64,000 bases of DNA from Bacteroidales bacterium (GTDB lineage: Bacteria > Bacteroidota > Bacteroidia > Bacteroidales > UBA3663): positions 3,987 to 67,986 of the forward strand of contig JAZRVB010000121.1 of the NCBI GenBank assembly GCA_045598885.1. Reading direction: 5' to 3'. The position numbers and the translations under genes were made by a program. The first letter of the stretch is position 1. Every line of letters begins with the position of its first letter. This document shows, in pieces, positions 7,320 through 27,028 of the stretch. Under the pieces are notes generated by a model, which saw only the letters and a program-made list of their open reading frames with translations, was not told where the DNA came from and searched no databases.

Positions 7320-7330
7320 CAAGAGACACA

Positions 7331-9771: not shown

Positions 9772-9775
9772 TGCC

Positions 9776-10282: not shown

Positions 10283-10285
10283 GCC

Positions 10286-10948
10286 ATGAAAAACACCAAA
10301 TTACGCATGATGGCAATGGCTGCCATCGCTGTCCTTATGACCTCATGTGATGATCATAAGGATTTCATTGACAATAGTATGCACGTAGGAGATGTGCTCA
10401 CTACCGATGGTGACGTGCTCCGTTACCATGACTACGAGAAGAGTGGCAAGGAAGCCATCGGCGTAGTCTTCCATGTGAATCAGGACGGAACCAAGGGAGA
10501 GGGAAGAGGCTATGCCGTCTATCTCTGGGATAAAGAAGGTTTGGCCTATGCCGATACTGTCAGTATCAGCCAGAAGACGGGTACTGACACCGAAGCCTAT
10601 GACGGCAATGCCAATACCTTTGCCATGATGGAGAATACAGGTGTGGGCTCACCACTGGCCGATGCCGTCTTCCCGATGTGGAAGATGGGTCAGAGTGCCT
10701 TTATCCCGAGTGTCGCTGAGATGCGTCTGATGAAGCAGCACAAGCTGGAGGTCAACCCTATCATCGAACGATGTGGCGGTGATGTCCTTCCGGATCAAGC
10801 AGAGGAGTGCTGGTATTGGACGAGTACGGGCGTGGAAGGCCAGGAGGAGTATAAGGCATGGCTCTATTCGCTACAGAGTGGAGCCATCCATGAGACTCCT
10901 AAGGATCAACCTCATAAGGCACGTCCAATCATTTCAATCCGTTACTGA
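10286..10948 (+). CDS. DUF1566-like lipoprotein
   Basis: Lipobox 'LMTSC'. 'AFIPSVAEMRLM' and 'YWTSTGV...AWLYSLQSGAIHETPKDQPHKARPIISI' resemble DUF1566 signature blocks. Confidence 0.55.
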   Translation: MKNTKLRMMAMAAIAVLMTSCDDHKDFIDNSMHVGDVLTTDGDVLRYHDYEKSGKEAIGVVFHVNQDGTKGEGRGYAVYLWDKEGLAYADTVSISQKTGTDTEAYDGNANTFAMMENTGVGSPLADAVFPMWKMGQSAFIPSVAEMRLMKQHKLEVNPIIERCGGDVLPDQAEECWYWTSTGVEGQEEYKAWLYSLQSGAIHETPKDQPHKARPIISIRY

Positions 10949-10956
10949 TCAACAAG

Positions 10957-11589
10957 ATGGAAGAAAGCAAGGAACTGCAAGGTAACTATAAGATCTTCAG
11001 GACAGTGATCTATGTGTCACTGCTCCTGGAGTTCTTCGAATATGCCATTGATCCGGCTGTGCTGGACCATTGGAATGGTGTGCTGGTCGAGATTCATGAC
11101 CGCATGAAACAGTGGTTCATCTATATGGATGGCCATATCGGATGGAGCAAGGTCGCTACCTTCCTAGTGGTCTGTGTCACCTGTCTCGGTACCAAGAACA
11201 AGAAGAGCATAGAGTTTGATGCCCGTAAGATGGTACTCTTTCCGATCGTGGCCGGCTTCATGCTGACCCTTCTCTCGGTAGTGCTTTTCAACCACAGACA
11301 CGCCACTCCTTTCTATGCGTCGATAGGTCTCAGGTTGGGTACGATCCTCTATATGATCGCCACCATCGTCGGCACTGTCTTCATCCATATTGCACTGGAC
11401 AATATCAGCAAGTTTCTTAGAGAGGGACTGCTGAAAGACCGTTTCAATCTGGAGAACGAGAGCTTCGAGCAGACGCAGAAGAAGGAGGAGAACAAGTACA
11501 GCGTCAACATCCCGATGCGATACTACTACAAGGGTAAATTCAGGGAAGGATGGGTGAATATCGTGAACCCTTTTCGAGGTACTAAATAG
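10957..11589 (+). pseudogene. Type IV coupling protein (TraG/TraD family, Bacteroidota type), N-terminal membrane fragment
   Basis: 210 aa with several TM segments. It ends '...WVNIVNPFRGT-K-stop'. The Walker A continuation is found at 25301 onward in a matching reading context. Confidence 0.8.
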
Positions 11590-12019
11590 AACAATCGAGT
11601 GATTTTTGTTAAACTCATACACTGACTAAAAGTAAACGTAAACGACTAAAATACAGTGATATGTGTAAAACAAAGGAAAACAACAGAAAAAATACGAAGC
11701 GGGATGACTTCGGGATGGTTGGGAACTTTGGTCGGGAACAGCCGATTTTGTTTCCCAGAGTTTCCCAGAAATGGGCTGAATACGGCTTGATTCAAATGGA
11801 TAATCCGTTTGTAGGTACATGGATGGAAACGAACGATAAGCCGCCATGAGGTCTAACTGTAAAGTCTAATTTTTCCGTCAGTAACTAAATAGATTTAATA
11901 GAAGATTGATAGTCAACAATTAAAAAGGATAATCCGACCGAAATTCCTTATCTTCGCAACCGCAAATCGAGGATTGTTCGGACTCCTACACTCGATAAAC
12001 AAATAAATAAAGAATTCCA

Positions 12020-13411
12020 ATGAAAATATCAGTTTCGCTACATAATGCCCCAAAGAAGGGCGAAGACCCAAAACTCAGACAGCTGATCTTCCGAGTACGA
12101 GAGGGCAACAATGATTTGAAGGTACGCACTGACCTCATGGCAGACCCAACACTTTGGGATGAATCGATACCAGGCTACCGACGCACTACCAAGTTGGGCA
12201 AAGGAGGCACAAAGGCATACAATGATAAGTTGCAAGACATCTTCCGACTTATCGAAGCAGACTTTACGCCAATGCGTGATGGCAAGTGGCTAAAGGAAAT
12301 CATCAATGGCTATCTTCACCCAGTTGTAGAGCAAGCAAAAACCTTCTCACCTCTACCATGCGAGGATGATGAGAAGGACACTTCGCTTGAAAACCTTGAC
12401 AAAGGCTCAGTTCCAGAGTGGTTCAAGAAATTTGTCGAGCGATGCGATGTCAGCCAAGGCAGAAAGGCTTGCTACCTTTCCACCATCAAAAAACTCCGTC
12501 GCTATGAGCTGTACAAACGAGAGTTTGAAGGTCAGGAAGGATTCAACCTATATCCAGATACCTTCACAATAGATGATCTCTATGACTTCTTTGACTATGT
12601 CGAGAATGAGTACATCTACTATGATGAGCATTTCGAGTGGTACTGCCAGTTCCACATCGGCAAGAAGCCACCTGTAAAGTACACCGACAACTATCTCATG
12701 ACTGTCAAGAGTCATTTCCGAGCATTCATGAACTGGATGACCAAGAACGGCTATAGTTCCAACATGGAATATAAGAAGTTAAAACTCAAAGCCGATGTCT
12801 ATGCAGACCCTATCTATCTCACACTTGAAGAGCGTGACAAGGTCTATTATGCAGACCTTAGCAAGCATCCGACTCTGAGCCTTTATAGGGATATGTTCAT
12901 GTTCCAGTGTCTTGTAGGTTGCCGAGTGTCTGACCTTTATGCTTTCACTACTCGCAACATTACACCTGATGGCTTCATTGAGTTCCTTCCTGCGAAGACG
13001 CGAGAGAATGCGGTCGAAGGCGCACCGTCTTCATTCTGCCGTGTGCCTCTCAATGAGAAGGCTATGGAGATTGTCAACCGCAACATGGATAAGCGCAGTG
13101 GTCGTCTCTTCCCATATCGCAATAAGAATATGTATGCGTATGGCATCAAGATGCTGCTCTTGCTCTGTGAGATTGACCGCATGGTGACAGCCAGAGATCC
13201 TGACACAAAGGAGTTCAATCGCTTCCCACTGTATATGGTTGCAACAACCCATACCGCGAGAAAGACCTTCATTGCCAATGTCTATAAGAAGGTAAAAGAC
13301 CCAGACTTGATCTGTTCTATGACAGGTCACATGCCTGGCTCCAAGTCCTTCCGTCGCTATCGTCACATAGATGACGAATGCAAGTGGGAAGCCCTTGAAG
13401 GCATAGAATAA
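12020..13411 (+). CDS. Tyrosine site-specific integrase
   Basis: 463 aa. 'LVGCRVSD', 'TTHTARKTFIANVY...MTGHMPGSKSFRRYRHI' (R..H.R..Y catalytic pattern). Confidence 0.9.
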   Translation: MKISVSLHNAPKKGEDPKLRQLIFRVREGNNDLKVRTDLMADPTLWDESIPGYRRTTKLGKGGTKAYNDKLQDIFRLIEADFTPMRDGKWLKEIINGYLHPVVEQAKTFSPLPCEDDEKDTSLENLDKGSVPEWFKKFVERCDVSQGRKACYLSTIKKLRRYELYKREFEGQEGFNLYPDTFTIDDLYDFFDYVENEYIYYDEHFEWYCQFHIGKKPPVKYTDNYLMTVKSHFRAFMNWMTKNGYSSNMEYKKLKLKADVYADPIYLTLEERDKVYYADLSKHPTLSLYRDMFMFQCLVGCRVSDLYAFTTRNITPDGFIEFLPAKTRENAVEGAPSSFCRVPLNEKAMEIVNRNMDKRSGRLFPYRNKNMYAYGIKMLLLLCEIDRMVTARDPDTKEFNRFPLYMVATTHTARKTFIANVYKKVKDPDLICSMTGHMPGSKSFRRYRHIDDECKWEALEGIE

Positions 13412-13443
13412 CATTGATTGTCTAACCACCCAAGAACAAGAAG

Positions 13444-14772
13444 ATGAAAGTTACAGCATTTATCCGTCAGAAGACTGTTGCCAAGAACAACACTACTGAC
13501 AAAAGTACGATATTCTTCCGCATCCGTGATGGCAAACTCGACATCAAGGTTGCCAGTGAGCTCTCTATCAATGCGAACCACTGGAGCGATGACCGCCAAG
13601 GCTACAAGCTTCGTGTGAACACCGTATCTGATGCAGTGAAAAGGGAACTCGACCGCAAGGTCAGGGAGATCACCGATCTTATCAATGACAAGTATCACAA
13701 GGGAGTTGATGGCAAGTGGCTGAAGCATCTGATCCAGTTGTATCACCATCCCAACATGATCTATGCAGAAGATGGCATCGACACCCGACTGACAAGTCAG
13801 ATTACTGAGTACTACAATCATAGAAAGGTCGCTACTTGCACCATCTATACGGCTCATACCATCATCAAGAAGATACAGCGTTTCGAGCAGTACATGCAGA
13901 CCGTCAAGCGACGCAAGGGTTATGTCATGTATGCAGAAGCCATCACCGAGGAAGACCTTTATCTTTTCAAGGAGTACTGTCTTGATGAGTATCTGATCTC
14001 ACAGGATTATCCAGAACTCTTCGAGAACGTGAAGCCATGGCAGAAGCCCAGAGCGGAAATGTCAGAGAATGGTGTCTATGACATCCTTCACAGACTCCGC
14101 ACCGTCATGAAGTGGATTGACTTCAACGGCATACCAACAACCAAGCCTTTCAGCCGCTTCGAGTTGAAGGCTCCAACGTATGGTACTCCGTGGTATCTCA
14201 CTCTTGAAGAAAGAGACAAAATCTGGAACCTTGATCTGTCAGGCGAGAAGAACCAGTTGAAGTTCCATCGTGACATCTTCATTTTTCAGTGCTGTGTCGG
14301 CTGTCGTATGGGTGATATTGGCAGATTCACCAAGGACAACATCGTCAATGGTGCTCTGGAGTATATTCCACATAAGACTGCCGAAAGTTCAGGCAGACTT
14401 GTACGAGTTCCGCTGAACCAGAAGGCTCAGGAGATACTGAACAGGTACAGTTGGCGCAAGACTACCTTGCTTCCTTACTTCGTGGATTTCGAGTACAACG
14501 AGGGTATCAAGACACTCTGTACCATGGCAGGTGTCACTCGCATCGTTTCGGTACTCGACCCGAAGACTCGTACCGAGGTGAAGAAGCCACTCAATGAGAT
14601 TGCAAGCAGCCACATGGCTCGACGCACCTTCATCGGCAACATGTACAAAAAGGTCAAGGATCCAGACCTTATTGGCTCGATGTCTGGTCATGTCGAAGGC
14701 TCCAAGGCTTTCGCCAGATACCGCACCATCGATGATGACATGAAGCGTGAACTCGTTGACATGATCAACTGA
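13444..14772 (+). CDS. Tyrosine site-specific integrase (tandem paralogue)
   Basis: 442 aa, collinear with the 12020 protein. 'CVGCRMGD', 'SSHMARRTFIGNMY...MSGHVEGSKAFARYRTI'. Confidence 0.9.
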   Translation: MKVTAFIRQKTVAKNNTTDKSTIFFRIRDGKLDIKVASELSINANHWSDDRQGYKLRVNTVSDAVKRELDRKVREITDLINDKYHKGVDGKWLKHLIQLYHHPNMIYAEDGIDTRLTSQITEYYNHRKVATCTIYTAHTIIKKIQRFEQYMQTVKRRKGYVMYAEAITEEDLYLFKEYCLDEYLISQDYPELFENVKPWQKPRAEMSENGVYDILHRLRTVMKWIDFNGIPTTKPFSRFELKAPTYGTPWYLTLEERDKIWNLDLSGEKNQLKFHRDIFIFQCCVGCRMGDIGRFTKDNIVNGALEYIPHKTAESSGRLVRVPLNQKAQEILNRYSWRKTTLLPYFVDFEYNEGIKTLCTMAGVTRIVSVLDPKTRTEVKKPLNEIASSHMARRTFIGNMYKKVKDPDLIGSMSGHVEGSKAFARYRTIDDDMKRELVDMIN

Positions 14773-14855
14773 CACACCTGCTCTGCTACACTTGCTCTGA
14801 TGTTCTAACGTTCTGTCTGGCAGATGTCCCTATACCGCATCTACCGACAGGACAC

Positions 14856-15608
14856 ATGTCAAACCTTTTAATACTGCAAATCAAAGAAGAAGCATATTCA
14901 ATGAATACCCCACCTCTTGACCAACAGTTTGGTCTTCAGGTATCGAGAGAATCAACCGCTTTTATCACTGATATACTTACTATGTCACAGAAGCATTTTA
15001 CTAACGAGGTCTTTCTCACTCATGCAGTGAGTCTTGACCTACTGGATTACCTCTGTCCAGTTCACAAGAAAGAGGTGTTGAGAGTCGATGCTTTCCGCGA
15101 CCTTCTCAACAAGACCTGCCAGCAGCCTACAGGTGCAATGACCAAGGAGGGTACTCCACTGATCGTTACCCCAGGGCAACTGGTAACGTCGGTTTCCGAA
15201 CTCTCACGAGTGTGGGACTGGCACAGGGATAAGGTTCGTGACTTCCTTGATGGACTTGCCGAACGTGGTGTTCTCACGATCGACATGCACAAGAAGTTCA
15301 TGATTCTTTCGTTCCCTGATCTGGCAGACCGCATTGCAGCCTATGCTCCGAAGGCTGACAACGAGGTATCTGCCGAGCCTGAATCTTCGAATGGTGGAGC
15401 AATCGAAGATAAGGGACAGAAGAAGGAAAGCTCATCTGTCACTCAGGATGTGGATGCAGCAACCGAGGCTATTGAAGCCAAGGAGGTGAAGTCTGGCATT
15501 CAGAAGGACGGAGAGAAGCAAGAAGATGGCGAGGCTGGTACTGCCAGACGTGGCGGTTACATAGAGCAAGACATCTTCTCTGGTGTTGATAACGCTGGCA
15601 CTGAATAA
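14856..15608 (+). CDS. Hypothetical protein, possible winged-helix DNA-binding, acidic tail
   Basis: 250 aa. 'QLVTSVSELSRVWDWHRDKVRDFLDGLAERGVL' looks like a wHTH recognition segment. The C-terminal third is low-complexity and acidic. The start codon is uncertain. Confidence 0.5.
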   Translation: MSNLLILQIKEEAYSMNTPPLDQQFGLQVSRESTAFITDILTMSQKHFTNEVFLTHAVSLDLLDYLCPVHKKEVLRVDAFRDLLNKTCQQPTGAMTKEGTPLIVTPGQLVTSVSELSRVWDWHRDKVRDFLDGLAERGVLTIDMHKKFMILSFPDLADRIAAYAPKADNEVSAEPESSNGGAIEDKGQKKESSSVTQDVDAATEAIEAKEVKSGIQKDGEKQEDGEAGTARRGGYIEQDIFSGVDNAGTE

Positions 15609-15643
15609 GTGCCGGCTAATACTAATCTAATGAATACTTAACA

Positions 15644-16015
15644 ATGGATCTATACTCAATGATTCAGGCTGGTGGTCGCATGAATTTCACGGTCACTGGC
15701 GAGGATCTTGTCCAGTTTGCAGAGACCCTTATCGAGAAGACTATCGCTATGCGTGATGCCGAATCGGCAATGGCTCCAAAGGACGAGACCTATCTTACAA
15801 CTGACGAGGTCATCGCTAAATTCCATGTCTGCAAGACTACCTTGTGGACTTGGGAGAAGAACGGTTACCTGATTCCTTCGCGTTGGGGCAAACGTAAGAC
15901 GTATGCCTTATCGGAACTCCATGCGATCATGAAGGATAAGAAGAAGCGTCTGCCAAATCTTGCCGCTCAGGAGAACAAGCTGGCAGATACGCTTGGAAAG
16001 GAGGTGCAGGGCTGA
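15644..16015 (+). CDS. Helix-turn-helix (excisionase/MerR-like) DNA-binding protein
   Basis: 123 aa. 'YLTTDEVIAKFHVCKTTLWTWEKNGYLIPSRWGKRKTY' is the typical Xis-family HTH of Bacteroidota mobile elements. Confidence 0.7.
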   Translation: MDLYSMIQAGGRMNFTVTGEDLVQFAETLIEKTIAMRDAESAMAPKDETYLTTDEVIAKFHVCKTTLWTWEKNGYLIPSRWGKRKTYALSELHAIMKDKKKRLPNLAAQENKLADTLGKEVQG

Positions 16016-16024
16016 CGGGTATCT

Positions 16025-16075
16025 CTGGGTGATAGGCATGGCTGCATTTGTACGCAGTCGTAGCCTGTCACCAGG
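16025..16075. other. Imperfect inverted repeat, candidate oriT element
   Basis: CTGGGTGATAGGC (16025-16037) faces GCCTGTCACCAGG (16063-16075), with a nested CTGC/GCAG pair. It lies in a ~650-bp ORF-free tract upstream of the mob genes. Confidence 0.25.
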
Positions 16076-16670
16076 GTCTTGCAGGAGCAACAGATTGGTG
16101 CTGTTATACGGCAGACACTCTATGTCTTACCCTTTTCCCTTTCGTCGATACCAGATGCCTTTTTCAATTTCACTTCTTGATCATCTTCAAGGCATAAGCT
16201 GTGATACAGGTATCTGGCAGATACACCCAAAGGTTAAGGGATGCCGAAGCGCCACTTACTATATTATATGTAGTTCGTGCCGCACCAGGCATTGGTCAAG
16301 ACTCGCTTCTATACGGACTTTACGCAGCAGACAGAGGTCAGCGACGTATCTCTGATCACAGTCTGTTATCATGCGTAAATCCGTTTCTGGAGGCTTTGTC
16401 AAGGTCGTAAGTCATGGGCTCACCACCTGTCCTGCAGCCTGTCTATTCATGTTTTACAAGCATCTTCGATGCCTACGGCTAATCCCTTAATTCTAAGTCG
16501 TTATGTCTCTGATCTGCCACGATCCAGCAGAGCTGAAACGATGACTGTCAGACGTAACGTCCGTTTTACGGAAAGAGTTTTTTCGGGGTTGGGGAGCAAG
16601 TGTATGTTTTCTAAGCCCAGAAAACAACCATCCCATTCGGTCGGGAGCATCAAGATGCTGGCACATAAAT

Positions 16671-17072
16671 GTGAAGGAGGCTATTATGAATAAAACCTCT
16701 AAACCCCAACCCCCAATATCTTCTCGTAAACATAAGGGTGGTCGTCCACCCATTCCTGAGGAACAGAAGCGTACCTGCTGCAAGAAGGTTTACTTCACAA
16801 AGGAAGAGTCTGAATGCGTAGAACTCGCTGCTGATGAGAACAACATGTCTGACTCAGAGTACATCAACCAGATGACTATGAACGGCAAGGTGGTAGCACC
16901 AATCTCGCCAGAATTTGCAAGGGACTTTCGATCCGTTGCGAATCTGTCAGGTAATCTCAACCAGTTGGCATACCAGGCCAACAAAGGTGGCTACCATACT
17001 GTGGCAAATGAACTGCTCGCAGAACGGTCAAGGCTGAAGGCTGTACTCAATAAACTCTACAGCTGGGTATGA
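16671..17072 (+). CDS. MobC-like mobilization (relaxosome accessory) protein
   Basis: 133 aa. 'GGRPP...KKVYFTKEESECVELAADENNMSDSEYI' and 'NLSGNLNQLAYQANKGG' match the ribbon-helix-helix MobC pattern. It overlaps the relaxase start. Confidence 0.75.
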   Translation: MKEAIMNKTSKPQPPISSRKHKGGRPPIPEEQKRTCCKKVYFTKEESECVELAADENNMSDSEYINQMTMNGKVVAPISPEFARDFRSVANLSGNLNQLAYQANKGGYHTVANELLAERSRLKAVLNKLYSWV

Positions 17073-18154
17073 TGCCGAAGATAAGTAACGGTTCTACCTT
17101 CGGTGGAATCGTCAATTACGCAAATGACATCAAGGACAAGGGGACAACAATCCTCGCGTCTCGTGGAGTGGATCTGACGAACAACTACACTATAGCGCAG
17201 TCGTTCAAGATTCAGGCTATGATGAACCAGCGAGTACAGATTTGTGTCGGACACTTTGCTCTCAGTTTTCCTCCTGAAGATGCACATCGCTGCACTGACG
17301 GATTCATGCGTAAACTGGCAATGGAGTATATGAAGAAAATGGGCATTACTGATACCCAGTTTGTCATCTTCCGACACCATGACCACGATCATGACCATGT
17401 GCATGTAGTGTATAACCGAGTCAATGATTCCGGCAAGACCATATCTGACGGATGTGATGTAGAAAGGGCAATCGCCATATGTCAGGCGATGACCAGACAC
17501 TATGGTCTTCACTGGAGCGATGGCAAGATGAACGTCAACCGCAACAGGCTCAAAGGCAAGGCTGTTGTCAAGTATGCCATCTTCGACGCAGCACAGAAGG
17601 CGTTGGCTGGCAGTCAGACGTGGAACGGTTTCATCGAGCGTATGAAGGAACAAGGCATTCAGGTCAAGGTTGCACCTCGTGATGATGGCAAGGGCATGGG
17701 CATCGTCTTCACCAAAGGCAATGTCTCTATGAGTGGTTATCAGGTTGACCGACGCAGCCTGACTTTCTACAAGCTCAACCAGCACTTGTACAACATCAAT
17801 GATCTGTTGCCAAGAGACCAGTGGCTACCCGACGAGCCAAGGATCTCTGAGGGCAATTACGACGAGTCTCAGTCTGATGCACGTCTGCCGAAAGTGTCCT
17901 TTAACAAGTCAGACGAGTATGTCGAGGACAGTAGCGTTAATATCTATGATGAGAATAACGATTCTGCCTTTTTTGATACCGACTCGGCTGCCGAAGTTGC
18001 TTCCAACGTGGCTGCTGCAGCTGTTGAACTGGTGACTGGTCCAGCTGTGGTTCCGACCTCAGGAGGTGGCGGCGGTGGCAGTTCCAGTGGCTGGGGCGAC
18101 GACGACGATGACGACGAGAAGAAGAAACGGAACACACCAAGGTTCCATCGTTAA
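17069..18154 (+). CDS. Relaxase/mobilization nuclease
   Basis: 361 aa. 'VGHFALSFPPED' and the histidine triad 'HHDHDHDHVHVVYNRV' are typical of MobA/VirD2-type relaxase domains. It has a Gly/Asp-rich low-complexity tail. Confidence 0.85.
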   Translation: MMPKISNGSTFGGIVNYANDIKDKGTTILASRGVDLTNNYTIAQSFKIQAMMNQRVQICVGHFALSFPPEDAHRCTDGFMRKLAMEYMKKMGITDTQFVIFRHHDHDHDHVHVVYNRVNDSGKTISDGCDVERAIAICQAMTRHYGLHWSDGKMNVNRNRLKGKAVVKYAIFDAAQKALAGSQTWNGFIERMKEQGIQVKVAPRDDGKGMGIVFTKGNVSMSGYQVDRRSLTFYKLNQHLYNINDLLPRDQWLPDEPRISEGNYDESQSDARLPKVSFNKSDEYVEDSSVNIYDENNDSAFFDTDSAAEVASNVAAAAVELVTGPAVVPTSGGGGGGSSSGWGDDDDDDEKKKRNTPRFHR

Positions 18155-18168
18155 TAACTTTACAGAAT

Positions 18169-19131
18169 ATGGGAAATAACACATCAAAACTAAAACCTGC
18201 AAGGGCAATAAGCAGGGAGAAGATCAAGGAAGTGGAAGGGAAATCGGAGAATGTTTCTTCTCCTGTTGCCTCTTCACGGAACGGATTCGTTCAACCTACT
18301 GAGCCTACAGACCAGAGAGAGGATCCTGATGTTATCGTTCCTATCTGTCAGCCGGATTCTGAACCGCCAGACGAGTCGGAAGACTTGGATGTGCCAGAAG
18401 AATTTACTGACAAGATACTCGGTGACATCTCAGTTCATGACTTCTGCTTTGTCATTGAAACCGTTTATAACTCTCTGCTCGATAATCGTGCTGAAGCGAT
18501 GCGCAAAGCACGAGAAGAGAGAATCCGCCAGCAAGAGGAATCTGGTATTGATATTATCACTCCAGAGAATGCTCTTATGAAGTGTGTGGAATACATGAAT
18601 GGTATCAAAGAGAATTACGACCAGTACAAGGCGCAGAAGAATGCAATCGCCAAGGAACAGGCAGAGACTAAGGAAACGGTCAAATTGCAAGCAGAAACCG
18701 TCAAACGACTGGAAACGGTAATTGGCAGGATTGAAGACGTGCAGGGTGTCAAGGCTCCCAAGCGACCACCATTCCCTTCATGGGCATGTCTGACATACCT
18801 ATTCTGGCACTGGCCAATGTACTGTTTCGCTTATTGCTGGCAGTCGAAGTACTTCCGCAGATTCTGCTTCCTGATCACATTCCTTGTGATAGTAGTGCAG
18901 TTCTGTATGATTGTTCTTTTGGCAAGCGACAATAAGAATTTGACTCATGACCATGCAAAATATGTCACTGTCAGAAACTGGTCATACGTGATGAAGGACA
19001 CGGCAGCCATCAATCGTTTCAATCGTGTGGACTTACTCTTTGAAGATGTCAAGTTCAACCGAGAGCAGATTGAAGAACTGGACGAGTTCATCCGTACTAA
19101 GCATGAGAAGAACCAGAAGCGTCGCAAGTGA
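18169..19131 (+). CDS. Hypothetical protein, acidic N-terminal half, C-terminal TM segments
   Basis: 320 aa in an operon position after the relaxase. TM stretches 'WPMYCFAYCW' and 'FCFLITFLVIVVQFCMIVLLA'. No recognisable family. Confidence 0.5.
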   Translation: MGNNTSKLKPARAISREKIKEVEGKSENVSSPVASSRNGFVQPTEPTDQREDPDVIVPICQPDSEPPDESEDLDVPEEFTDKILGDISVHDFCFVIETVYNSLLDNRAEAMRKAREERIRQQEESGIDIITPENALMKCVEYMNGIKENYDQYKAQKNAIAKEQAETKETVKLQAETVKRLETVIGRIEDVQGVKAPKRPPFPSWACLTYLFWHWPMYCFAYCWQSKYFRRFCFLITFLVIVVQFCMIVLLASDNKNLTHDHAKYVTVRNWSYVMKDTAAINRFNRVDLLFEDVKFNREQIEELDEFIRTKHEKNQKRRK

Positions 19132-19160
19132 TAGGCTTGCTACGTCACTCTATTAAAATT

Positions 19161-19192
19161 GGCGCACCATCCGTAGTGGGTGATGCGCCTTT
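19161..19192 (+). terminator. Candidate intrinsic terminator after the mob operon
   Basis: GGCGCACCA...TGATGCGCC stem followed by TTT. It sits between the convergent genes ending at 19131 (+) and 19244 (-). Confidence 0.5.
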
Positions 19193-19243
19193 GATGATTA
19201 TTGTAGAACTCTATTATTTGAGATTATATAATTCCGTATTTCT

Positions 19244-20041
19244 TTACATTTTTTCTACCCATTTAACCACTCTAATACTCAATTCAAAAAGTAAGTATAA
19301 TGGTATAGTTACCAAAATGAGTGTCATTACGTCAGGTGGTGTAATAATGGCAGCTACAAACATTATAACAAGAAATGCATGTTTCCGGTATTCTGAAAGT
19401 AAATCAGAAGAAATGAATTCCATCTTTGCCAATGCAAATGCTATAACTGGTAATTGAAATACTAATCCCATGACTAGGGTCAGGGTTGTGAAAGTACTTA
19501 CATAACTATCCAGCGTAATGGTACTATGTACTCGATCTGCAACACTATACGTTCCAAGAAACCGAAAGGAAATTGGAAATAGTATATAGTAACTCATTAA
19601 CACTCCAAGAATGAAAAGAAAATAAATAACAGCAGCAATCTGTATAGAGTATTTCTTTTCACTTTCATACAGCGCAGGAGAAATGAAACGAAATAATTCA
19701 AATAGAATGTATGGCGATGCTCCAAGCAATCCTAAATATACAGCTGTGGTGATGTGTGTCATAAACTGGGATGACAAGTCGGTAGCTATGAGATCCACAT
19801 TGAATTCATCGAAATGGAAATCAGAAAAACCGAGCGAATGCATCACCGACTCTATCCATTGATATGTACAGAAGTTCCATTCGCTCGGAGCAAGCAACAT
19901 GTTCCAAGTGACACTTTTGAAACAGAACACTACAGCAGAAAGCACTCCTGCTACACCAAGAATGCGAAACAACATCTGGCGGAACACCTCAAGATGTCCG
20001 CCAAATGTGAGCATAGAACTGGTATCGTTACTGCTCGCCAT
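19244..20041 (-). CDS. tatC: Twin-arginine translocase subunit TatC
   Basis: Start taken at MASSND... (the track ORF starts at 20071). '[17 protein letters not shown]' matches the conserved TatC N-terminus, and the protein is polytopic with about six TM segments. Confidence 0.85.
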
Positions 20042-20294
20042 CCTTCTTTTCTTCCTTCCTCTCACCTTCATTCAGAGGTGAGGTTTTTCCTTCTTCTGTT
20101 GGCTGTTCTGATTGATTATTGTCACTTTCACCTTTAACGTCGTTCATACCTTGCTTGAACTCTTTGACACCTTGTCCAAGTCCACGCATCATTTCAGGCA
20201 GTTTTTTGCCTCCAAACAATAATAAAGCTAACCCTCCGATAAGAAGTAGTTCTGTTGTTCCTATAAAAAGGAATGGTATTCGAAGAAAAATCAT
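20028..20294 (-). CDS. tatA: Twin-arginine translocase subunit TatA/E
   Basis: 88 aa. A single N-terminal TM segment is followed by '[26 protein letters not shown]', the canonical TatA hinge and amphipathic-helix signature. Confidence 0.85.
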
Positions 20295-20296
20295 AC

Positions 20297-20569
20297 TTAA
20301 TAAACTAAATAAATTTCACGTGTCTCAAAATCGATTTCCCAGTTTCCTCCTTCTACAAACTCCCACTGGTACTTTTCAGCCATAGTATCCCACCACTTTT
20401 GAAAATTTGTACAAGTTTCGCCAAGATCCTTTACAAGCTTTTCGTATAATTCAGTATTATCTTTGGTTAAGATTAAAGCCAATTCGTTAAGTCCATTACG
20501 ACGTTCGAAAAGCGCTTGAATAGTGTCTCTTTCTTCAACAGTTACCTGTCCTACAGTTTTCTTTTGCAT
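20297..20569 (-). CDS. Small (90 aa) partner protein of CXXX-repeat peptide modification systems
   Basis: Tightly packed between the SPASM gene and tatA. Acidic, predicted helical, no signal peptide. Recalled to match the family NCBI labels 'CXXX repeat peptide modification system protein'; not verified by search. Confidence 0.55.
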
Positions 20570-20576
20570 AACAAAT

Positions 20577-21581
20577 TTAGTTTATTAGTTTTTTAATCCA
20601 ATCTTTGCGAATATCGAAAGGGTCAAGATATGAAATCTCTTCAATGACTTTTCCTTGTAAGAAAACTCCGTGTTTTCTGATAGACTCAAGCAGGTATCTA
20701 CTTGCATTGCGTTCAAGATGTGCAACTACACATTGCTCATGACTTGGGGTGTTAACTTCGGTTGTTGTTCTACGATTAAGCCAGATGCAGCGTTTGCAAT
20801 GATACGCATCACAATTTCTACACAAGGGCGCATGCGAAATCTTGAATAATTGAGGATTCTTTATATCTAATCCATTCTCTAAAGAGCCAAGGTCAAACCC
20901 TTTACAACAAACTTCAGACAAAGACTGTTCGGTGCCTTCAAGTTGCGGATCAAGATAAAAAGCAGGACAAATATAAAAATGACCATCAGGTGCAAGTGTT
21001 ATGGTTGTATCACCAGCACCACAATTATTCATTTTATCAAGCAGCATTCGATCTGTTATCAGATTAAACTGAGGAGAATTTCCATTTATATATAAAGTAG
21101 TTAGCTCATCAGCCCAATCACATAGACATTTTTTGTATGTATCGAAATCATTATTTGAGAAACTTTCAATATCGGTAATAATGATATTTAATCGAGCTAC
21201 TTTCCCAATTATGTTTTTAATCAGATCACGACATGAAAACAAGGTGTTTTTATCAATCCTAATTACATATGCCTTCTTTTCATCATAATGATAATCAGCA
21301 ACCTCTTCAAGTTTGCTCATCACAACTATGTCTGCATCGGAAGTATCAATGCAAGATGGCATTATTTTGTTATGATCGATTGTCTCTACAACATCTTTGT
21401 ATTCTTGTGGTAGTTCATAACCTGGATATACAAACTGAATCATCAAGTTTTCCTTCATTCCAAAGAAAATTCCCTTTTTTAAGTTTTCAATTGAAATAAG
21501 TTGATGTTCTGTATTGCTATTACTGTAATGGCAATATGATGTACTTGTACGATCAAGTAATATAACTAAGTATTGAAGCAT
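20577..21581 (-). CDS. SPASM-domain protein, radical-SAM-like but lacking the CxxxCxxC cluster ('CXXX repeat peptide maturase' type)
   Basis: 334 aa. The C-terminal Cys set 'NNCGAG...YICP...CCKG...LCRNCDAYHCKRCIW...EQC' has SPASM/twitch character. The N-terminus has only 'SYCHY' where the SAM-cluster motif would be. Confidence 0.7.
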   Translation of the reverse strand: MLQYLVILLDRTSTSYCHYSNSNTEHQLISIENLKKGIFFGMKENLMIQFVYPGYELPQEYKDVVETIDHNKIMPSCIDTSDADIVVMSKLEEVADYHYDEKKAYVIRIDKNTLFSCRDLIKNIIGKVARLNIIITDIESFSNNDFDTYKKCLCDWADELTTLYINGNSPQFNLITDRMLLDKMNNCGAGDTTITLAPDGHFYICPAFYLDPQLEGTEQSLSEVCCKGFDLGSLENGLDIKNPQLFKISHAPLCRNCDAYHCKRCIWLNRRTTTEVNTPSHEQCVVAHLERNASRYLLESIRKHGVFLQGKVIEEISYLDPFDIRKDWIKKLIN

Positions 21582-21585
21582 ATTT

Positions 21586-22809
21586 TTAGCAAATTATATT
21601 ACTATTTTTTTTATTTTTTTTGGCCTCAAACTCCTCACGCTTGCCTTCTAACTCCAATTTGCGATAGAGTTTGTTCCAATAATAATTATTAGCTCGAACA
21701 CGTGCTTTGTGCATCTTGCATATTGCTGTAGCACGTTGATAGGTTGTAGGAGTGTCAGCTGCATCATAGTTCTCACCTTGACACCAAGCACAACCACTAG
21801 CGACTTCGCATTCAACGCACTCCGGATTTGATTGAGTACAACGATCTATAGTTAATAAAGGTCGAAGTTTATTGAAATCTAAACCGTCATTGATATTTCC
21901 AACTATCAAAGGTAGTTTGTTCCTTAACGAATATTGTGCAAATCGAGTGCATGGGTAAAAGTTGCCAGCTGCATCTACAGCAAGCATATTACCAGCGCCA
22001 CACCAATTTGTATTGTCCAACACTTTATCCATAGGTTTTCCTAATTGCTCCCAGAAGAAAGAACAAGAATTGTCTATGTATAGATCATTGTCAATAATAG
22101 CATCAGCTAAATCTATTAGCTGTCTTTCCAACTTCAGATCGTCATTTTCTTTCCAAACTTGCTCAAAAACGCAATTGATGTTTACGTCATGAATACCAAT
22201 TGAGAATAAATGTAAAACACTATCCTTGATATAATCGATATTTGAGCTTGTGATTGTAACTTTTGTTGTGGCTACAGGAAATTGGGTTAAATATAGAGGT
22301 ATATTTTTAACAACATCCTCATAGGATCCTTTGTAACTTTCTTTATATACTCTATTGGTATCATGTAGCTGTTTAGTGCCATCTATTGTAATAGTAACAC
22401 TTAAATGATCAAGGTTCTTTTGAATGAACTTTTGAACTTTTTCGTTATGATAATTAATACCATTTGTAGAAAAGTTGAATCTATAAGAATTAAACCATTT
22501 GTGGTTTCTTCTAAACATCTCTACTTTTATATAATCACAAATTCTATCAATCAGATCAATTTCCAAGAAAGGTTCACCTCCAATGAAATCCCAAACTACA
22601 GACTCTTCATTGAAATAGTTATCGTTATCAAGAACATAGTCTATAGCTTTTTTGGCGACTTCCCAAGACATCCTTTCTTTAGTGTTCTTCCCGACTAGAT
22701 AGCAATATTTACAAGCCAACTGGCAATCCTTTGTTACAATAAAAGTGATTTCCCTTGCAACTCCACTTTGCCAAGCAATATCGTCAACTTTAATTCCTAG
22801 CTCTTTCAT
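21586..22809 (-). CDS. Radical SAM/SPASM peptide maturase
   Basis: Start taken at MKELGIK (the track ORF starts at 22842). 'TKDCQLACKYCY' is CxxxCxxC. The C-terminal 'NWCGAG...FYPC...CVECEVASGCAWCQGE...AICK' is a SPASM domain. Confidence 0.85.
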   Translation of the reverse strand: MKELGIKVDDIAWQSGVAREITFIVTKDCQLACKYCYLVGKNTKERMSWEVAKKAIDYVLDNDNYFNEESVVWDFIGGEPFLEIDLIDRICDYIKVEMFRRNHKWFNSYRFNFSTNGINYHNEKVQKFIQKNLDHLSVTITIDGTKQLHDTNRVYKESYKGSYEDVVKNIPLYLTQFPVATTKVTITSSNIDYIKDSVLHLFSIGIHDVNINCVFEQVWKENDDLKLERQLIDLADAIIDNDLYIDNSCSFFWEQLGKPMDKVLDNTNWCGAGNMLAVDAAGNFYPCTRFAQYSLRNKLPLIVGNINDGLDFNKLRPLLTIDRCTQSNPECVECEVASGCAWCQGENYDAADTPTTYQRATAICKMHKARVRANNYYWNKLYRKLELEGKREEFEAKKNKKNSNIIC

Positions 22810-22878
22810 ATTACAGAAAAGGGCACCAAAACAAATGCCCAAAAAGCAAATGTTTTGATGCCAATTAAATTTGATAAA

Positions 22879-23226
22879 TTAGTTTTTGCCTACGCCCTTA
22901 CATGCATAGTGACTACAACCGCCTGTACAGGTTGTACTACAGCTAGTACAGCTGTGAGAACAAGTGCCTGTACATGTAGTGCTACAACCTCGGCAACTGT
23001 GAGAGCAAGTGCCTGTACATGTAGTACTACAACCCTTACATGCACCATAGCATGCACCAGTGCAAGTACCAGTGCATCCCATCGGTGAACTTTCTGCTGC
23101 CCTAACGAATGACGGAGTGCTTGCCATTACAAGAGCAGTAAGAATTGGAAGTGCGCCCTTGGCTGCTTTTTTGAAGAATTCACGTCTAGACTGAAGTTCT
23201 TCATTGTTGTTCATTTTCTTATCCAT
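22879..23226 (-). CDS. Tat-signal, Cys-rich CxxxC-repeat precursor peptide
   Basis: 115 aa. Twin-arginine motif 'SRREFFKKAA', hydrophobic region, and 'VRA-AE' cleavage-type site. The ~65-aa core holds 16 Cys spaced mostly every 4 residues (GCTGTCTGACYGACKGCSTTCTGTCSHSC...). Confidence 0.85.
   Translation of the reverse strand: MDKKMNNNEELQSRREFFKKAAKGALPILTALVMASTPSFVRAAESSPMGCTGTCTGACYGACKGCSTTCTGTCSHSCRGCSTTCTGTCSHSCTSCSTTCTGGCSHYACKGVGKN
22954..23034. repeat. 45-bp-period tandem repeat inside the precursor gene
   Basis: GTGAGAaCAAGTGCCTGTACATGTAGTgCTACAACC (22954-22989) recurs at 22999-23034 with 2 mismatches. A third, more diverged copy lies at ~22909-22953. Each unit encodes a C-STT-C-TGT-C-SHS-C module. 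Confidence 0.85.
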
Positions 23227-23298
23227 GGTTTAAGAATTTAGAACAGACCTATAGTTCCAAGATTCAGTCGTTGTTTTATTAATGTGATTAACAGACAT

Positions 23299-23339
23299 AA
23301 AAAAAGACGTGGAACTTTCATTGTTGCTCGTTCTACGTC
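23299..23339 (-). terminator. Candidate intrinsic terminator or attenuator ~75 nt upstream of the precursor start
   Basis: Minus-strand RNA GACGUAGAAC...GUUCCACGUC (10-bp stem, 1 mismatch) is followed by U7 (plus-strand A7 at 23299-23305). Confidence 0.5.
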
Positions 23340-23554
23340 AGGAGGCCTTCGCATTGCCCAAGATTGTTGAACGGAGCAACGCGAAGTCCACGCCAGATAT
23401 GTATATAATACACCCTACACCAATAATTTGACACTAAACCCTCAATGTTAAGGGAATTTGTATCAAACAATAGGAATAAGGACATGAATATAAACACATC
23501 CCGAAGACATTCATCGTTGCAATGTTCTGACAATCTTTAAGAAAGTTGCGAAGT

Positions 23555-23570
23555 TTCCTGACGTCAGGAA
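23555..23570. promoter_or_regulatory. Perfect 16-bp palindrome TTCCTGACGTCAGGAA (possible dimeric regulator site)
   Basis: Read directly from the sequence. It lies in the ~1.1 kb ORF-poor spacer upstream of the peptide operon. Confidence 0.3.
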
Positions 23571-24368
23571 CAAAGCGTCAATTGAACGCTTTACCATTAT
23601 GTCGTAATCTCCCGCCCAAAACCCGCTTCAACATCTGATGTTACCACCATCTGTTTCGGCTTGGCGTGGACTTTAATAGATTCTATTTTGCAAGCTTATC
23701 TCGTATTGGCATTATACCTTTCGTGATGTGCCTTTCAAATAAATCTAATTAAGGAAATCAAGTGCAAAAATAGCAATAATATTCAAAATGTTTCTAAAAA
23801 AATGAAGAAAATAATCACAAGAGTTAAATAGTTATTTAAATTCATAGCCGAATGTAATTTGAATGTTGCATTTTTGTTAATTAGAGATATCAATCTTATT
23901 CTATTATACATTGCATTTTTATCTATGAGTCCACTTGAAGAAGTCTTGGCCTAAAAAAGTGCTTACAAAATGATATTTGATCTATCCCTACACTAAGAAA
24001 AGAGGGGCAAATCTCCCTATATTGAGGTAATTTAAGACTGAAATTCGTCTTTGTTGGACAATTGCAGCCTTGGAATGTAGCAAAATGAAAGCAAAAATTT
24101 TGGAGCTTTCAAAATTGGCACTTTTTCAAGTAGATTCATCTATAAAAAACTCCTTTTTGATATTTTTTATTACTGTACTTGGAATTTCAACCCTGATTGA
24201 AAATGACATAATGTTACAGATTGGGAACGATCCTAATCTTCCAATTAAAATATTTTTTGATATTCAATAGGTTATATCAATACCCATGTATCATTAAGGA
24301 TGGCACATAGGTAGAAAAGTAGGGGCTACAGTAAAGTAACCCCAATGTAAAGATAGACAGTACTCAGA

Positions 24369-24878
24369 TTAGATCTTTCGTTTCAAAGATTTCATCGCCA
24401 GTTCTTGGATTTTGAGTTTAGCTGCTTCCTCAATTTCCTTCTCTGATGCTACTCGGCATGAACGCATCCATTTCAGGAGTTCTTCCTTTTCAAAGTAAAC
24501 GACTTTACCATTAGGCTTGTAGAATGGGATGACTCCTTCATGAGTCATCTTGTAAATAGAACTACGAGACATTCCCAATAAGATAGCAGCATCTTCAGTA
24601 GTGAGCAACTGCTTGCTTTCATACAATACGTTTTCAAGAGACTCTACACGCGCTGTCAGCTTTTCAATCTTCTCTTGAAGTTCTTTCTCCGTCTTAGAAG
24701 GTACAGGAATAGCCTTTGGTGCAGTAGGCGAGTTTTGAACCTTTGGTGCTACAGGAACACTCTTTTGTCCACTCTGATCAGACGTTAATTGCTTAACGAA
24801 CTCCGCGAGCTCGGCAGCAGAAATCTCAAAATTCACTTGTGAAGTCTGAGCCATTTCTAATTTTTCTTTGATACTCAT
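24369..24878 (-). CDS. Helix-turn-helix (excisionase-family) DNA-binding protein
   Basis: 169 aa. The C-terminal half 'LLTTEDAAILLGMSRSSIYKMTHEGVIPFYKPNGKVVYFEKEELLKWM' is a classical Xis/MerR-type HTH. It sits ~430 bp from the right end of the inserted element. Confidence 0.75.
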   Translation of the reverse strand: MSIKEKLEMAQTSQVNFEISAAELAEFVKQLTSDQSGQKSVPVAPKVQNSPTAPKAIPVPSKTEKELQEKIEKLTARVESLENVLYESKQLLTTEDAAILLGMSRSSIYKMTHEGVIPFYKPNGKVVYFEKEELLKWMRSCRVASEKEIEEAAKLKIQELAMKSLKRKI

Positions 24879-25300
24879 AAAAGTTTATATATTGATACCA
24901 GTGGCAATATCGCCACCTATATAATATAATACTCTTTTCCCTACCTTCAAAGATGATCTTTCCAATTAACACTCTGGGGTAATAGTGTTAAAAATGCAAC
25001 GACAAAAGCAGATTCTTGGGTAACTATTTTCTTAATTCAAGAAAAATATGTATCTTTGCATCCAGTTAGATGTGAGTTCTAACACTTTCACTTGATTCAA
25101 TTTTGCCCACAAAACCAGAATCTTTTTTCGGGCATCGTTTTTAGTTCTTTGAATAAGCGTTTTTGAACGCTAAATACCTCCAACGGACGTTAACAACCTA
25201 ATATCATTTAACGTCAAAATATCGGGAACACGTTGGGAACAATCCCCATTTTTCTCATTTTCCAAACTTTGATTATCAGCATTTTAACTACCACCTAAGT

Positions 25301-26911
25301 CCCACTTTTCGTGGCACCTGGGTCGTAGGTACTCCTGGTTCTGGTAAGACCTTCTCCATCATCGAGCCGTTCCTCAGACAGCACAGTGAGAAGGGCTTTG
25401 CGATGGTTGTGTACGACTACAAGTTTCCTACGCTGGCCACCAAGCTCTATTACCACTATCTGAAGAACAAGAAGGAGAAGAAGTTGCCTGAAGGATGCAG
25501 TTTCAATGTCATCAATTTCGTCAATGTGGAGTACAGCCGACGGGTCAATCCTATTCAGCACAAGTATATCGAGAACCTTGCCGCTGCCTCAGAGACAGCC
25601 GAGACACTGCTTGAATCTCTTCAGAAAGGCAAGAAGGAGGGAGGCGGTGGCGGTAGTGACCAGTTCTTCCAGACTTCTGCCGTCAACTTCCTGGCTGCCT
25701 GTATCTATTTCTTTGTCACGTATAAGATGGAACCCTACGATAAGGATGGCAATGTCCTGCACATGAAGGAGATATGGAGCCCTGCACATAACAAGAATGT
25801 GCCTGATAAGGGTCATGCCTATGACGATGCCGGCAATGAGGTAGTACCTGCTTACTGGCTGGGCAAGTATTCGGATATGCCGCATATCCTGAGCTTCCTG
25901 AATGAGAGCTATCAGACTATCTTCGATGTCCTTCAGACCAACAATGAGGTAGCCCCTCTGTTAGGACCGTTCATGACCGCCTTGAAGAATAAGGCTATGG
26001 AGCAGTTGGAAGGTATGATCGGTACGCTCCGTGTCTATACCAGCCGACTCGCAACCAAAGAGTCTTACTGGGTGTTCCATCGTGACGGTGATGACTTCGA
26101 CCTTCAGGTGTCCAACCGTAAGAATCCGAGCTATCTGCTTATCGCCAATGATCCTGAGATGGAGAGTATCATTGGTGCTCTGAATGCGCTGATCCTCAAT
26201 CGTCTTGTCACCCGTGTCAATCAGGGTCAGGGCAGGAACGTGCCAGTCAGCATCATTGTGGATGAGTTACCTACCCTCTATTTCCATAAGATAGACCGAC
26301 TCATCGGTACGGCACGAAGCAACAAGGTAGCCGTTACCTTGGGCTTCCAGGAGTTGCCGCAGCTGGAGGCAGACTACGGTAAGGTGGGTATGCAGAAGAT
26401 CATCACTACCGTAGGTAATGTGGTCTCAGGCTCTGCCCGTAGCAAGGAAACGCTCGAATGGCTTAGCAACGATATCTTCGGTAAGGTGGTACAGCTGAAG
26501 AAGGGTGTCACCATCGACAGAGACCGTACCAGCATCAACCTGAATGAGAATATGGACAATCTCGTTCCTGCTTCCAAGATCAGTGACTTGCCTACTGGCT
26601 GGATTTGTGGTCAGACTGCACGCGATTTCGTGCAGACCAAGGTAGGCCATAATGGCAATATGAATATCCAAGAGGCAGAGGAGTTTCAGACCACTAAGTT
26701 CTTCTGTAAGACCAACTTCGATATGAAGGCCATCAAGACCGAGGAAGAGAACTACAGGGAGCTGCCAAAGTTCTATAAGTTCCCTTCCAAGGAGGCTAAG
26801 GAGCGTATCCTCTACACCAATTTCATACAAGTCAACAAGGACATAAAGGATATGATCAATGATGTCTTTGGGCGCAACAAGCAGCAGCCAGAGACACCCA
26901 AGAAACAATAA
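25301..26911 (+). pseudogene. Type IV coupling protein, C-terminal ATPase fragment
   Basis: The frame reads '...PTFRGTWVVGTPGSGKTFSIIEPF' (Walker A) with no start codon before it. The track ORF begins at an internal Met (25403). Also 'GGGGGSDQFFQTSAVNFLAACIYFF' and Walker B-like 'SIIVDELPTL'. Confidence 0.85.
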
Positions 26912-26931
26912 ACCTTGACTTTCTTTTGCCG

Positions 26932-26971
26932 TCCGGCCTGTTGCTCGTGAGAGTCGCAGGTCGGATTTTTA
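26932..26971 (+). terminator. Candidate intrinsic terminator after the T4CP gene
   Basis: TCCGGCCTG...CAGGTCGGA stem (one G.U pair) followed by TTTTT. Confidence 0.6.
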
Positions 26972-26974
26972 TAT

Positions 26975-27008
26975 GGAAAAACCGCAGCCATTTAGATAGC
27001 TACGGTTT
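26975..27008 (-). terminator. Candidate intrinsic terminator after the helicase gene
   Basis: AAACCGCAGC/GCTACGGTTT stem (9/10 paired). On the minus strand it is followed by a run of five U. Confidence 0.55.
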
Positions 27009-27028
27009 CCAGAAAGCAAGAGTAGGTA

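Follow-up and report, generated by a model that had tools for sequence, protein, structure and literature searches.

A gene for a type IV coupling protein (T4CP) is split in the stretch of DNA analysed here, which covers 64,000 nt of contig JAZRVB010000121.1 from a Bacteroidales bacterium (assembly GCA_045598885.1) and is referred to below as the window. The gene belongs to a resident integrative and conjugative element (ICE), which also carries Bacteroidales TraM and DUF4138 (TraN) genes. It is interrupted at 11576/11577 and 25311/25312 with the same 7-bp core, CTTTTCG, at both junctions (11570-11576 and 25305-25311), just as the first-pass annotation had read it. The DNA between these positions, 11577-25311, is a Bacteroidales integrative mobilizable element (IME), which was integrated in the T4CP gene by conservative site-specific recombination.

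The N-terminal T4CP fragment (10957-11589, plus strand, 210 aa) matches the Pfam family YWFCY, which is the N-terminal membrane domain of Bacteroidales coupling proteins. It ends with ...GWVNIVNPFRGTK-stop, the TAG codon (11587-11589) being located within the element DNA, and it is cut off one codon past the junction. The same reading frame resumes at about 25295 as ...SPTFRGTWVVGTPGSGKTFS and extends to 26911. This C-terminal (ATPase) fragment (25312-26911, plus strand) matches the Pfam families T4SS-DNA_transf, TrwB_AAD_bind and TraG-D_C. The Walker A motif GTPGSGKT is encoded at 25328-25351, and the insertion lies directly upstream of its codons. According to the list of open reading frames (ORFs) and the translation, the earliest in-frame start codon of the C-terminal fragment is at 25403, i.e. 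past Walker A, and the C-terminal piece therefore cannot yield a functional protein. In the integrated state the T4CP is thus split and inactive, since its N-terminal piece stops inside the element and its C-terminal piece has no start before Walker A, in agreement with the inactivation proposed in the first-pass annotation.

The two halves, when rejoined (...NPFRGT + WVVG...), give a protein of 739 aa. A database search provided an intact 739-aa homologue (P0001), which is 98% identical to the joined halves with 100% coverage and to residues 1-208 of which the N-terminal fragment aligns. It also provided thousands of uninterrupted T4CP homologues of 726-729 aa from Phocaeicola, Bacteroides and related genera, and intact homologues have no natural break at the position of the insertion. 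Two metagenome contigs, L001 and L002, encode P0001 and represent empty sites. In the tblastn comparison of the joined protein with L001, residues 1-738 aligned over 738 columns without a gap. At the DNA level, L001 6077-10626 aligns to window 7044-11582 (91%) and L001 10616-12281 to window 25307-26970 (92%), so that the two alignments abut with an overlap of 11 bases in L001, and the insert of 13,735 bp (11577-25311, one core copy counted) is missing from the empty site. Since the 98% identical intact homologue aligns gap-free and the empty-site alignments abut, the split of the gene in the window is not a matter of chance, and the expectation that the broken frame would prove collinear with intact T4CPs was borne out.

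Gene content and ends of the element

The element starts with two adjacent genes on the plus strand which encode tyrosine recombinases. Int1 (12020-13411, 463 aa) matches Phage_integrase and SAM_5, both weakly (SAM_5 below the cut-off), and Int2 (13444-14772, 442 aa) matches Phage_integrase without any SAM_5 match. The two proteins are paralogues (36% identity, BLASTP E = 3e-88). Each retains the catalytic Arg, Lys, His-x-x-Arg and His in conserved alignment columns; the catalytic Tyr (...RRY for Int1) was read from the sequence. Int1 homologues of 76-90% identity were found in 21 loci, Int2 adjoins Int1 in all T4CP-targeting relatives, and the 90%-identity cluster of Int2 comprises 838 member sequences. 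A Tn554-like TnpA/TnpB/TnpC arrangement was suggested by the two recombinases followed by a third gene, and it was discarded as no family match supported it. When Int1 was compared with the PLSDB plasmids by tblastn, only matches of 24-37% were obtained; the best of them, in a 15.9-kb 'plasmid' of Bacteroides finegoldii, belongs to a different element with a single integrase. The tRNA and PDB sequence searches gave no relevant match.

The integrase genes are followed on the plus strand by a conserved backbone gene (14856-15608, 250 aa) without a Pfam or NCBIfam match, whose homologues in the relatives have 220-231 aa and keep this position in all of them. Next comes a gene for a small helix-turn-helix (HTH) protein (15644-16015, 123 aa; Pfam HTH_17, E = 1.4e-4, below the curated cut-off). 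This ORF is coding, since its mismatches show codon periodicity, and the protein, which is conserved in the relatives, is a candidate excisionase or directionality factor. The 656-bp region between the HTH gene and the mobilization genes (16016-16670) is non-coding and equals the coding genes in conservation; its identity to the related locus L024 is 82%, with indels and without a 3-base periodicity of mismatches, and it had no match in Rfam. Its position upstream of the mobilization genes, from which alone a function can be deduced, makes it the likeliest candidate place of oriT, although it could also be an RNA or a regulatory region.

The mobilization genes encode a ribbon-helix-helix relaxosome accessory protein (16671-17072, plus strand; Pfam NikA-like, E = 2e-14) and a MobP-type relaxase of 361 aa (17069-18154, plus strand; Pfam Relaxase, the MobA/VirD2 nuclease domain, E = 9e-31), which has partial NCBIfam matches to Bacteroid_MobB and TraI_MobP_relax. 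The last conserved backbone gene (18169-19131, plus strand) encodes a family-specific 320-aa protein with 148 homologues and no domain, and the similarity to the relatives stops at about 19192. No domain of a T4CP or of the type IV secretion system (T4SS) pore was found by Pfam and NCBIfam in any ORF of 11577-25311. The integrases, HTH proteins and relaxase described by the first-pass annotation are therefore present and pore and T4CP genes are lacking, while the partner of the relaxase, taken there for MobC-like, is a NikA-like ribbon-helix-helix protein. An element with its own recombinases and a relaxase, in which none of the ORFs is similar to a T4CP or to a part of the pore, is an IME; short direct repeats and an empty site in relatives complete the picture.

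The stretch 19193-24932 is cargo, with a G+C content of 36% as against 47% in the element backbone. It contains, all on the minus strand, the genes for TatC (19244-20071; Pfam TatC, E = 2.5e-56) and TatA (20028-20294; Pfam TatA_B_E, E = 4e-14) and a CXXX-repeat peptide radical-SAM maturation system recognized by NCBIfam (20297-23226). The latter consists of an associated protein (20297-20569), a maturase (20577-21581), a radical SAM/SPASM enzyme (21586-22842) and a 115-aa precursor (22879-23226) with the twin-arginine signal SRREFFKK and Cys-x-x-x repeats. The scores exceeded the cut-offs for the radical SAM/SPASM enzyme (TIGR04115, 596/350), the maturase (TIGR04119, 228/150) and the partner protein (TIGR04116, 100.5/50); the precursor (TIGR04117, 46.3 against a cut-off of 50) was just below its cut-off, and so was TIGR04114. 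Repeats of 45 nt are present in this region. The presence of own TatA and TatC beside a twin-arginine precursor suggests that the modified Cys-rich peptide may be exported folded or with a bound cofactor. Near the right end, a minus-strand gene encodes a 169-aa HTH protein of the excisionase family (24369-24878; Pfam HTH_17, E = 5e-14; NCBIfam TIGR01764 'excise'). It is not conserved in the relatives at the DNA level, since the similarity to the right ends of L005 and L041 begins only at 24933. The cargo of the relatives is mostly anti-phage defence: type I restriction-modification with AbiH, HEPN/methylase/helicase sets, GmrSD, KAP NTPase and AbiE.

Both ends of the element are conserved. The left arm (11577-12019), which begins with AGGTA, shares about 78% identity with those of 14 relatives, and the right arm (24933-25304), ending with ...AAGTCCCA, shares 80-82% with the corresponding ends of L005 and L041. 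A motif scan detected paired TTGGGAAC / TCGGGAAC at 11719 and 11732 and two inverted copies of GTTTCCCAGA at 11750-11769 in the left arm, and paired TCGGGAAC / TTGGGAAC at 25222 and 25233 in the right arm. The paired YYGGGAAC motifs, located within the element about 150 bp from its left end and about 80-90 bp from its right end, are conserved in the relatives and, together with the inverted motifs, are candidate arm-type integrase sites.

The crossover can be bounded by comparing the junctions. At the left one the core (attL, 11570-11576) covers bases 2-3 of a Pro codon, a Phe codon and bases 1-2 of an Arg codon, and the empty-site alignments abut here. At the right junction, the element end AAGTCCCA is followed by the core CTTTTCG (attR, 25305-25311) and host TGGCACC in the window, by CGTTCCG and TGGCACA in L041 and by CCTTTCG and AGGTACA in L053; the T4CP frame resumes as R-G-T-W in all three. 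The attL and attR cores are identical to each other in the window (CTTTTCG) and in L041 (CGTTCCG). The element side is fixed (...GTCCCA at the right end, AGGTA... at the left end) while the 7 bases in between follow the wobble bases of the host, which bounds the crossover to a 7-bp overlap. The crossover thus takes place in the region C-N-T-T-Y-C-G within the Asn-Pro-Phe-Arg-Gly codons immediately before Walker A. An overlap of 7 bp is usual among tyrosine recombinases. A duplicated crossover sequence of this length is also reported for the CTnBST-type Bacteroides integrase IntBST (bioRxiv 10.1101/2021.01.21.427628).

The first-pass annotation had noticed that the codons adjacent to the core differ between the junctions only at synonymous positions (cga ggt act versus cgt ggc acc) and had taken this for an element-borne imitation of the target. 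This did not hold, as the relatives carry AGGTAGAAGAAG (RGRRR) there. Their DNA at this position is AGGTAGAAG, of which AGGTA alone is conserved among them, and some T4CP alleles naturally have CGA GGT ACA (L053). The resemblance beside the 7-bp crossover is an ordinary partial similarity of attP and attB, mostly coincidental, with no selected imitation.

The T4CP target across the family

Relatives with Int1 homologues were drawn from isolate genomes and metagenome-assembled genomes (MAGs) of Parabacteroides faecalis, Paludibacteraceae, Bacteroidaceae and Rikenellaceae and from metagenomes, ERZ940800 and ERZ28657386 being among those with occupied contigs, and more were obtained with the 320-aa backbone protein. 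The left junction was readable in 32 relatives, and 31 of them have ...GW[VI]N[VI]xNPF|R followed by the left end of the element, i.e. they occupy the same NPF|RG codon. The N-terminal T4CP fragments of their hosts are 27-67% identical to that of the window, and at least 19 different T4CP flank sequences or alleles are occupied. Two ICE architectures are hit, TraM-TraN(DUF4138)-...-T4CP as in the window and ParA / MobC_2-relaxase-T4CP as in the CTnDOT-like mob region. The orientation is constant across the loci, with the integrase genes co-directional with the T4CP gene. The survey confirmed that the NPFRG site of the T4CP gene is the normal target of the family across many ICE lineages. Together with the empty sites and the core repeats, it bears out the first-pass description of a tandem-integrase mobilizable element integrated site-specifically just before Walker A.

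The element has also moved between ICEs recently. Backbones that are 96-100% identical over the first 6.5 kb are found in loci whose T4CP flanks cannot be aligned or share only 72-77% identity; in the pair L024 and L025, the element is 100% and the flank 77% identical. Since the cargo of the relatives exceeds the 10-kb flanks, L041 was the only locus in which the search for right junctions by means of the 320-aa protein reached the right end. The conserved 22-mer of the right arm was not found in the viral contigs that were scanned. The contigs of L004, L011, L015, L019, L028, L034 and L035 begin 5-100 bp from the left junction, as would be expected from a branch of the assembly graph at the att site; such a branch could be caused by one element in several T4CP alleles or by occupied and empty sites in one sample.

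The single exception, L005 (6660-6720, 13960-14003), is integrated outside a T4CP gene at CCCTTTAGGGGGA, compared with the consensus target CCNTTYCGTGGYA. The insertion point of this copy is the loop of a G+C-rich hairpin, CCCCCCTCAGTGCCCCC-TTTAG-GGGGACTGAGGGGGG, and at its right junction ...GTCCCA is separated from the host DNA by one base more than in the remaining copies. The location looks like a secondary site resembling the primary one. The mobilization module of the family (a 220-aa protein, absent in L045, a 118-aa protein, the NikA-like protein, the relaxase and a protein of about 330 aa) occurs outside T4CP genes in L043, behind a different, single integrase, and in L045, without the tandem pair. 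The T4CP targeting thus goes with the Int1/Int2 pair, because the module also occurs with other integration modules, and the integration and mobilization modules are therefore exchanged.

Proposed excision and transfer, and rival readings

The paralogues Int1 and Int2, both with a complete catalytic set, would act together in recombination, probably assisted by the paired YYGGGAAC arm-type sites and by the small HTH protein as a directionality factor. Given conservative recombination and identical cores, precise excision would regenerate ...NPFRGTWVVGTPGSGKT..., and we infer on this sound basis that excision restores the T4CP gene. The excised circle would then be nicked by its own NikA-like/MobP relaxosome, with oriT probably in 16016-16670, and exported via the pore of the ICE with the repaired T4CP or with the T4CP of another ICE in the cell. 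The element depends on a T4CP for its transfer, since it has a relaxase and no T4CP. As a target, the T4CP gene would offer a site held constant by protein function in every potential helper. The insertion would also link the element physically to its helper and make the transfer of the ICE dependent on prior excision of the element. Speculatively, transcription of the ICE transfer genes might read into the integrase genes and trigger excision; read-through is possible because these genes are located directly downstream of the T4CP frame and co-oriented with it. Taken as a whole, an IME in the T4CP gene, with this gene as the family target, restored by excision, and with helper-dependent transfer, is the best explanation of the data and in our view a highly probable one.

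Several points weigh against it. No arm-binding domain (Pfam Arm-DNA-bind_5) was detected in Int1 or Int2, and an exact look-up of Int1 found the identical protein nowhere else on record. The window element is divergent, being about 86% identical to the main clade. Only three right junctions were readable in T4CP genes, and attL/attR pairs within the T4CP gene are available just for the window and L041. Neither an attP-like junction or excised circle nor a repaired site of the same strain was present in any locus examined. The ICE of the window is also broken at about 7044, in a traK-like gene for a 204-aa protein, by another tandem-integrase element. Because of this second disruption, two excisions would be needed for the ICE to work, and the window copy may be stranded in a dead ICE. 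Finally, the role of both integrases, the directionality factor, the place of oriT and the control by read-through are steps that we infer.

The proposal can be extended to a checkpoint, which we put forward only tentatively and consider rather unlikely in its full form. Read-through from the transfer/T4CP operon into int1-int2-xis would lead to excision and rebuild the T4CP, so that the ICE would transfer only after the element has circularised; Int1 and Int2 would form a hetero-tetramer; the 7-bp overlap copied from the host allele would let one element colonise T4CP genes differing in wobble bases; and T4CP targeting would have arisen independently in Firmicutes (with serine recombinases) and in Bacteroidota (with tyrosine recombinases). 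The scan for sigma-70 promoters and terminators was uninformative for Bacteroidales and did not demonstrate a terminator-free operon link. This last result fits an alternative that we regard as possible though still doubtful, namely that the invariant T4CP motif is just a safe harbour on mobile DNA. There would be no switch, the ICE would be crippled, the element would spread by co-transfer in ICEs mobilised by others or by a T4CP acting in trans, and excision would be uncoupled from induction. Bacteroidales genomes often hold several ICEs, which would suit such carriage, as would the two breaks in the ICE of the window and those in the P. faecalis ICE (L003), in which the T4CP gene and a traJ-like gene are each interrupted, the latter by a tandem-integrase insertion. 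Passive carriage is nevertheless insufficient to explain near-identical elements in very different T4CP alleles, which require frequent excision and re-integration. The fixed co-orientation with the T4CP gene fits a functional link, yet it would also be expected from any asymmetric att site.

The element might instead be a parasite, or a brake that serves the host, in which the T4CP knockout suppresses costly transfer of the ICE and the cargo pays its way. There is no doubt that the T4CP is inactive in the integrated state, and defence genes dominate the cargo of the relatives. The element has nevertheless kept a relaxase and an accessory protein of its own, neither of which is of any use unless a T4CP and a pore are available. 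Its spread thus needs the very function which it blocks, and we consider interference of this kind improbable. Both the safe harbour and the interference differ from the IME reading preferred here only in the functional layer, i.e. in coupling and control. An artefact would be a different matter, whether a chimeric assembly or T4CPs that naturally consist of two genes with others in between. All that favours it is that the window consists of one contig, the quality of which is uncertain. It is refuted by the thousands of intact homologues (726-739 aa), the empty-site alignment and the survey of left junctions, in which the same left junction recurs in over 30 independent contigs of isolate, MAG and metagenome origin, and by the three matching right junctions, and we give it practically no credence.

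Known elements and the surroundings of the insertion

Integration in coupling-protein genes is known from Firmicutes, in which IMEs occupy traG (encoding the VirD4 coupling protein) of Tn5252-superfamily ICEs, as in Tn6104 of Clostridioides difficile and IME_Sco1050_traG_site1/site2 of Streptococcus constellatus (PMC5704250). Induction of the ICE was proposed to trigger excision of the IME and to rebuild the conjugation module (PMC5704250). Like the present family, these elements integrate in ICEs at a specific site within the T4CP gene and so break a gene on which their own mobilization depends. Among their cargo are a bacteriocin-like peptide cluster (in Tn6104) and genes for restriction or toxin-antitoxin systems. 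However, they have serine recombinases and often replication genes and belong to another phylum and another T4SS class, whereas the present family has two paralogous tyrosine recombinases, a 7-bp crossover, a target in the motif before Walker A and T4CPs of the YWFCY type. The likeness is convergent since there is no sequence relationship.

Tandem tyrosine integrases are known from Bacteroidales as well. The mobilizable transposons MTnPi1, MTnPi2 and MTnPi3 of Prevotella intermedia (12-18 kb) carry such genes; their excision as circles was shown by PCR, and a copy that had lost the downstream integrase did not excise, which pointed to a need for both (Naito et al. 2016, PMC4755523). They resemble the present family, compared here by description, in having two adjacent tyrosine-integrase genes at one end, a relaxase and variable cargo. 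In contrast to Int1 and Int2, which are 36% identical, the MTnPi integrases are reported to have no significant mutual similarity (PMC4755523). Their att sites are of an 11-bp TTAC-N5-AA type with low specificity, several copies being present in the chromosome (PMC4755523), and differ from CNTTYCG in the T4CP gene. The MTnPi elements also carry a primase-family gene, and none was detected by Pfam and NCBIfam in the present element.

The NBU1/NBU2 and CTnBST-type elements share with the present family the Bacteroides tyrosine recombinases, short identical crossover sequences and occasional secondary sites resembling the primary one. They are mobilised in trans by conjugative transposons using their own Mob protein. 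Both types differ in having a single integrase and in their targets, which are tRNA 3' ends for NBU and a loose 7-bp genome-wide pattern for CTnBST. The integrases of the IntCTnDOT subgroup (CTnDOT and NBU integrases) consist of an N-terminal arm-binding, an enlarged core-binding and a catalytic domain (PMC8138268). The two integrases of the neighbouring element in the window (4437-6784) match all three of these domains, and they align with Int1 and Int2 over the full length with 19-24% identity. The skin element in the Bacillus sigK gene and the Listeria comK prophage likewise split a coding gene which is rebuilt solely by precise excision. In those cases, however, the rebuilt gene serves development or the infection cycle of the host, whereas a rebuilt T4CP would serve another mobile element. 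No description of a Bacteroidales element targeting a T4CP gene was found in the open-access literature, and an earlier one may exist outside it. We rate the present family as joining two known ideas, T4CP-gene targeting and tandem tyrosine integrases, rather than as a new category.

In the gut microbiome, genes flow mainly by way of the ICEs of Bacteroidales, which carry antibiotic resistance, polysaccharide-utilisation loci and type VI secretion systems. An abundant family located in the T4CP genes of many ICE lineages would decide which of these ICEs transfer and when, and it also moves defence systems and peptide gene clusters between Bacteroidales families. For annotation, a split "YWFCY protein" followed by two integrases and a distant truncated "conjugative DNA transfer protein" should be treated as a single gene with an interruption and not as decay of the ICE. 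The fixed target and the paired paralogous integrases provide a tractable system for studying how the work is shared between tandem tyrosine recombinases and whether hitch-hikers control the elements that help them. Parabacteroides faecalis AGMB00274, which carries the element at locus L003 (contig NZ_JAKZMM010000004.1), is at hand in culture.

The second tandem tyrosine-integrase pair (4437-6784, minus strand; 387 and 390 aa; Arm-DNA-bind_5, SAM_5 and Phage_integrase) is part of the element which interrupts the traK-like gene. This element is located at 4437-7044 and probably reaches left to position 1 or past it. The traK-like gene is intact in L001, L003 and L009. A homologous integrase pair (56% and 47% identity) is present in P. 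faecalis L003 at 245-2577, where it truncates the neighbouring traJ-like gene for a 379-aa protein, and in both host-side sequences, at about 7044 in the window and in L003, GGTTTCTAC occurs no more than about 20 bp from the junction. To the left of the second pair, the window encodes an AAA ATPase with a PD-(D/E)XK-like tail (2702-4264) and a DDE_Tnp_1/DUF772 transposase of an insertion sequence (1064-2167). On the other side of the T4CP gene, about 5.6 kb (26970-32599) between this gene and a PLD-like nuclease gene are missing from L001. The region encodes a 943-aa superfamily 1 (SF1) helicase with a DUF2726/nuclease-like C-terminus (27029-29860, minus strand) and two ORFs of no assigned family, and may represent a defence-type cargo swap in the ICE.

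A 521-aa T4CP fragment, P0286, was considered as a further gene split by the element and was rejected, as it is instead preceded, at about residue 219, by the apparent 3' end of a group II intron. This end was recognized by eye from the sequence GAGCCGTATG...GGGAAAC...CATGTACGGTTC, and in L047 two RVT_1/GIIM reverse-transcriptase genes precede it. The P0286 allele (L047-L052) is interrupted about 11 codons further on than the T4CP gene of the window, just after Walker A. Since these alleles are interrupted there too, mobile elements of more than one kind may be drawn to T4CP genes around Walker A.

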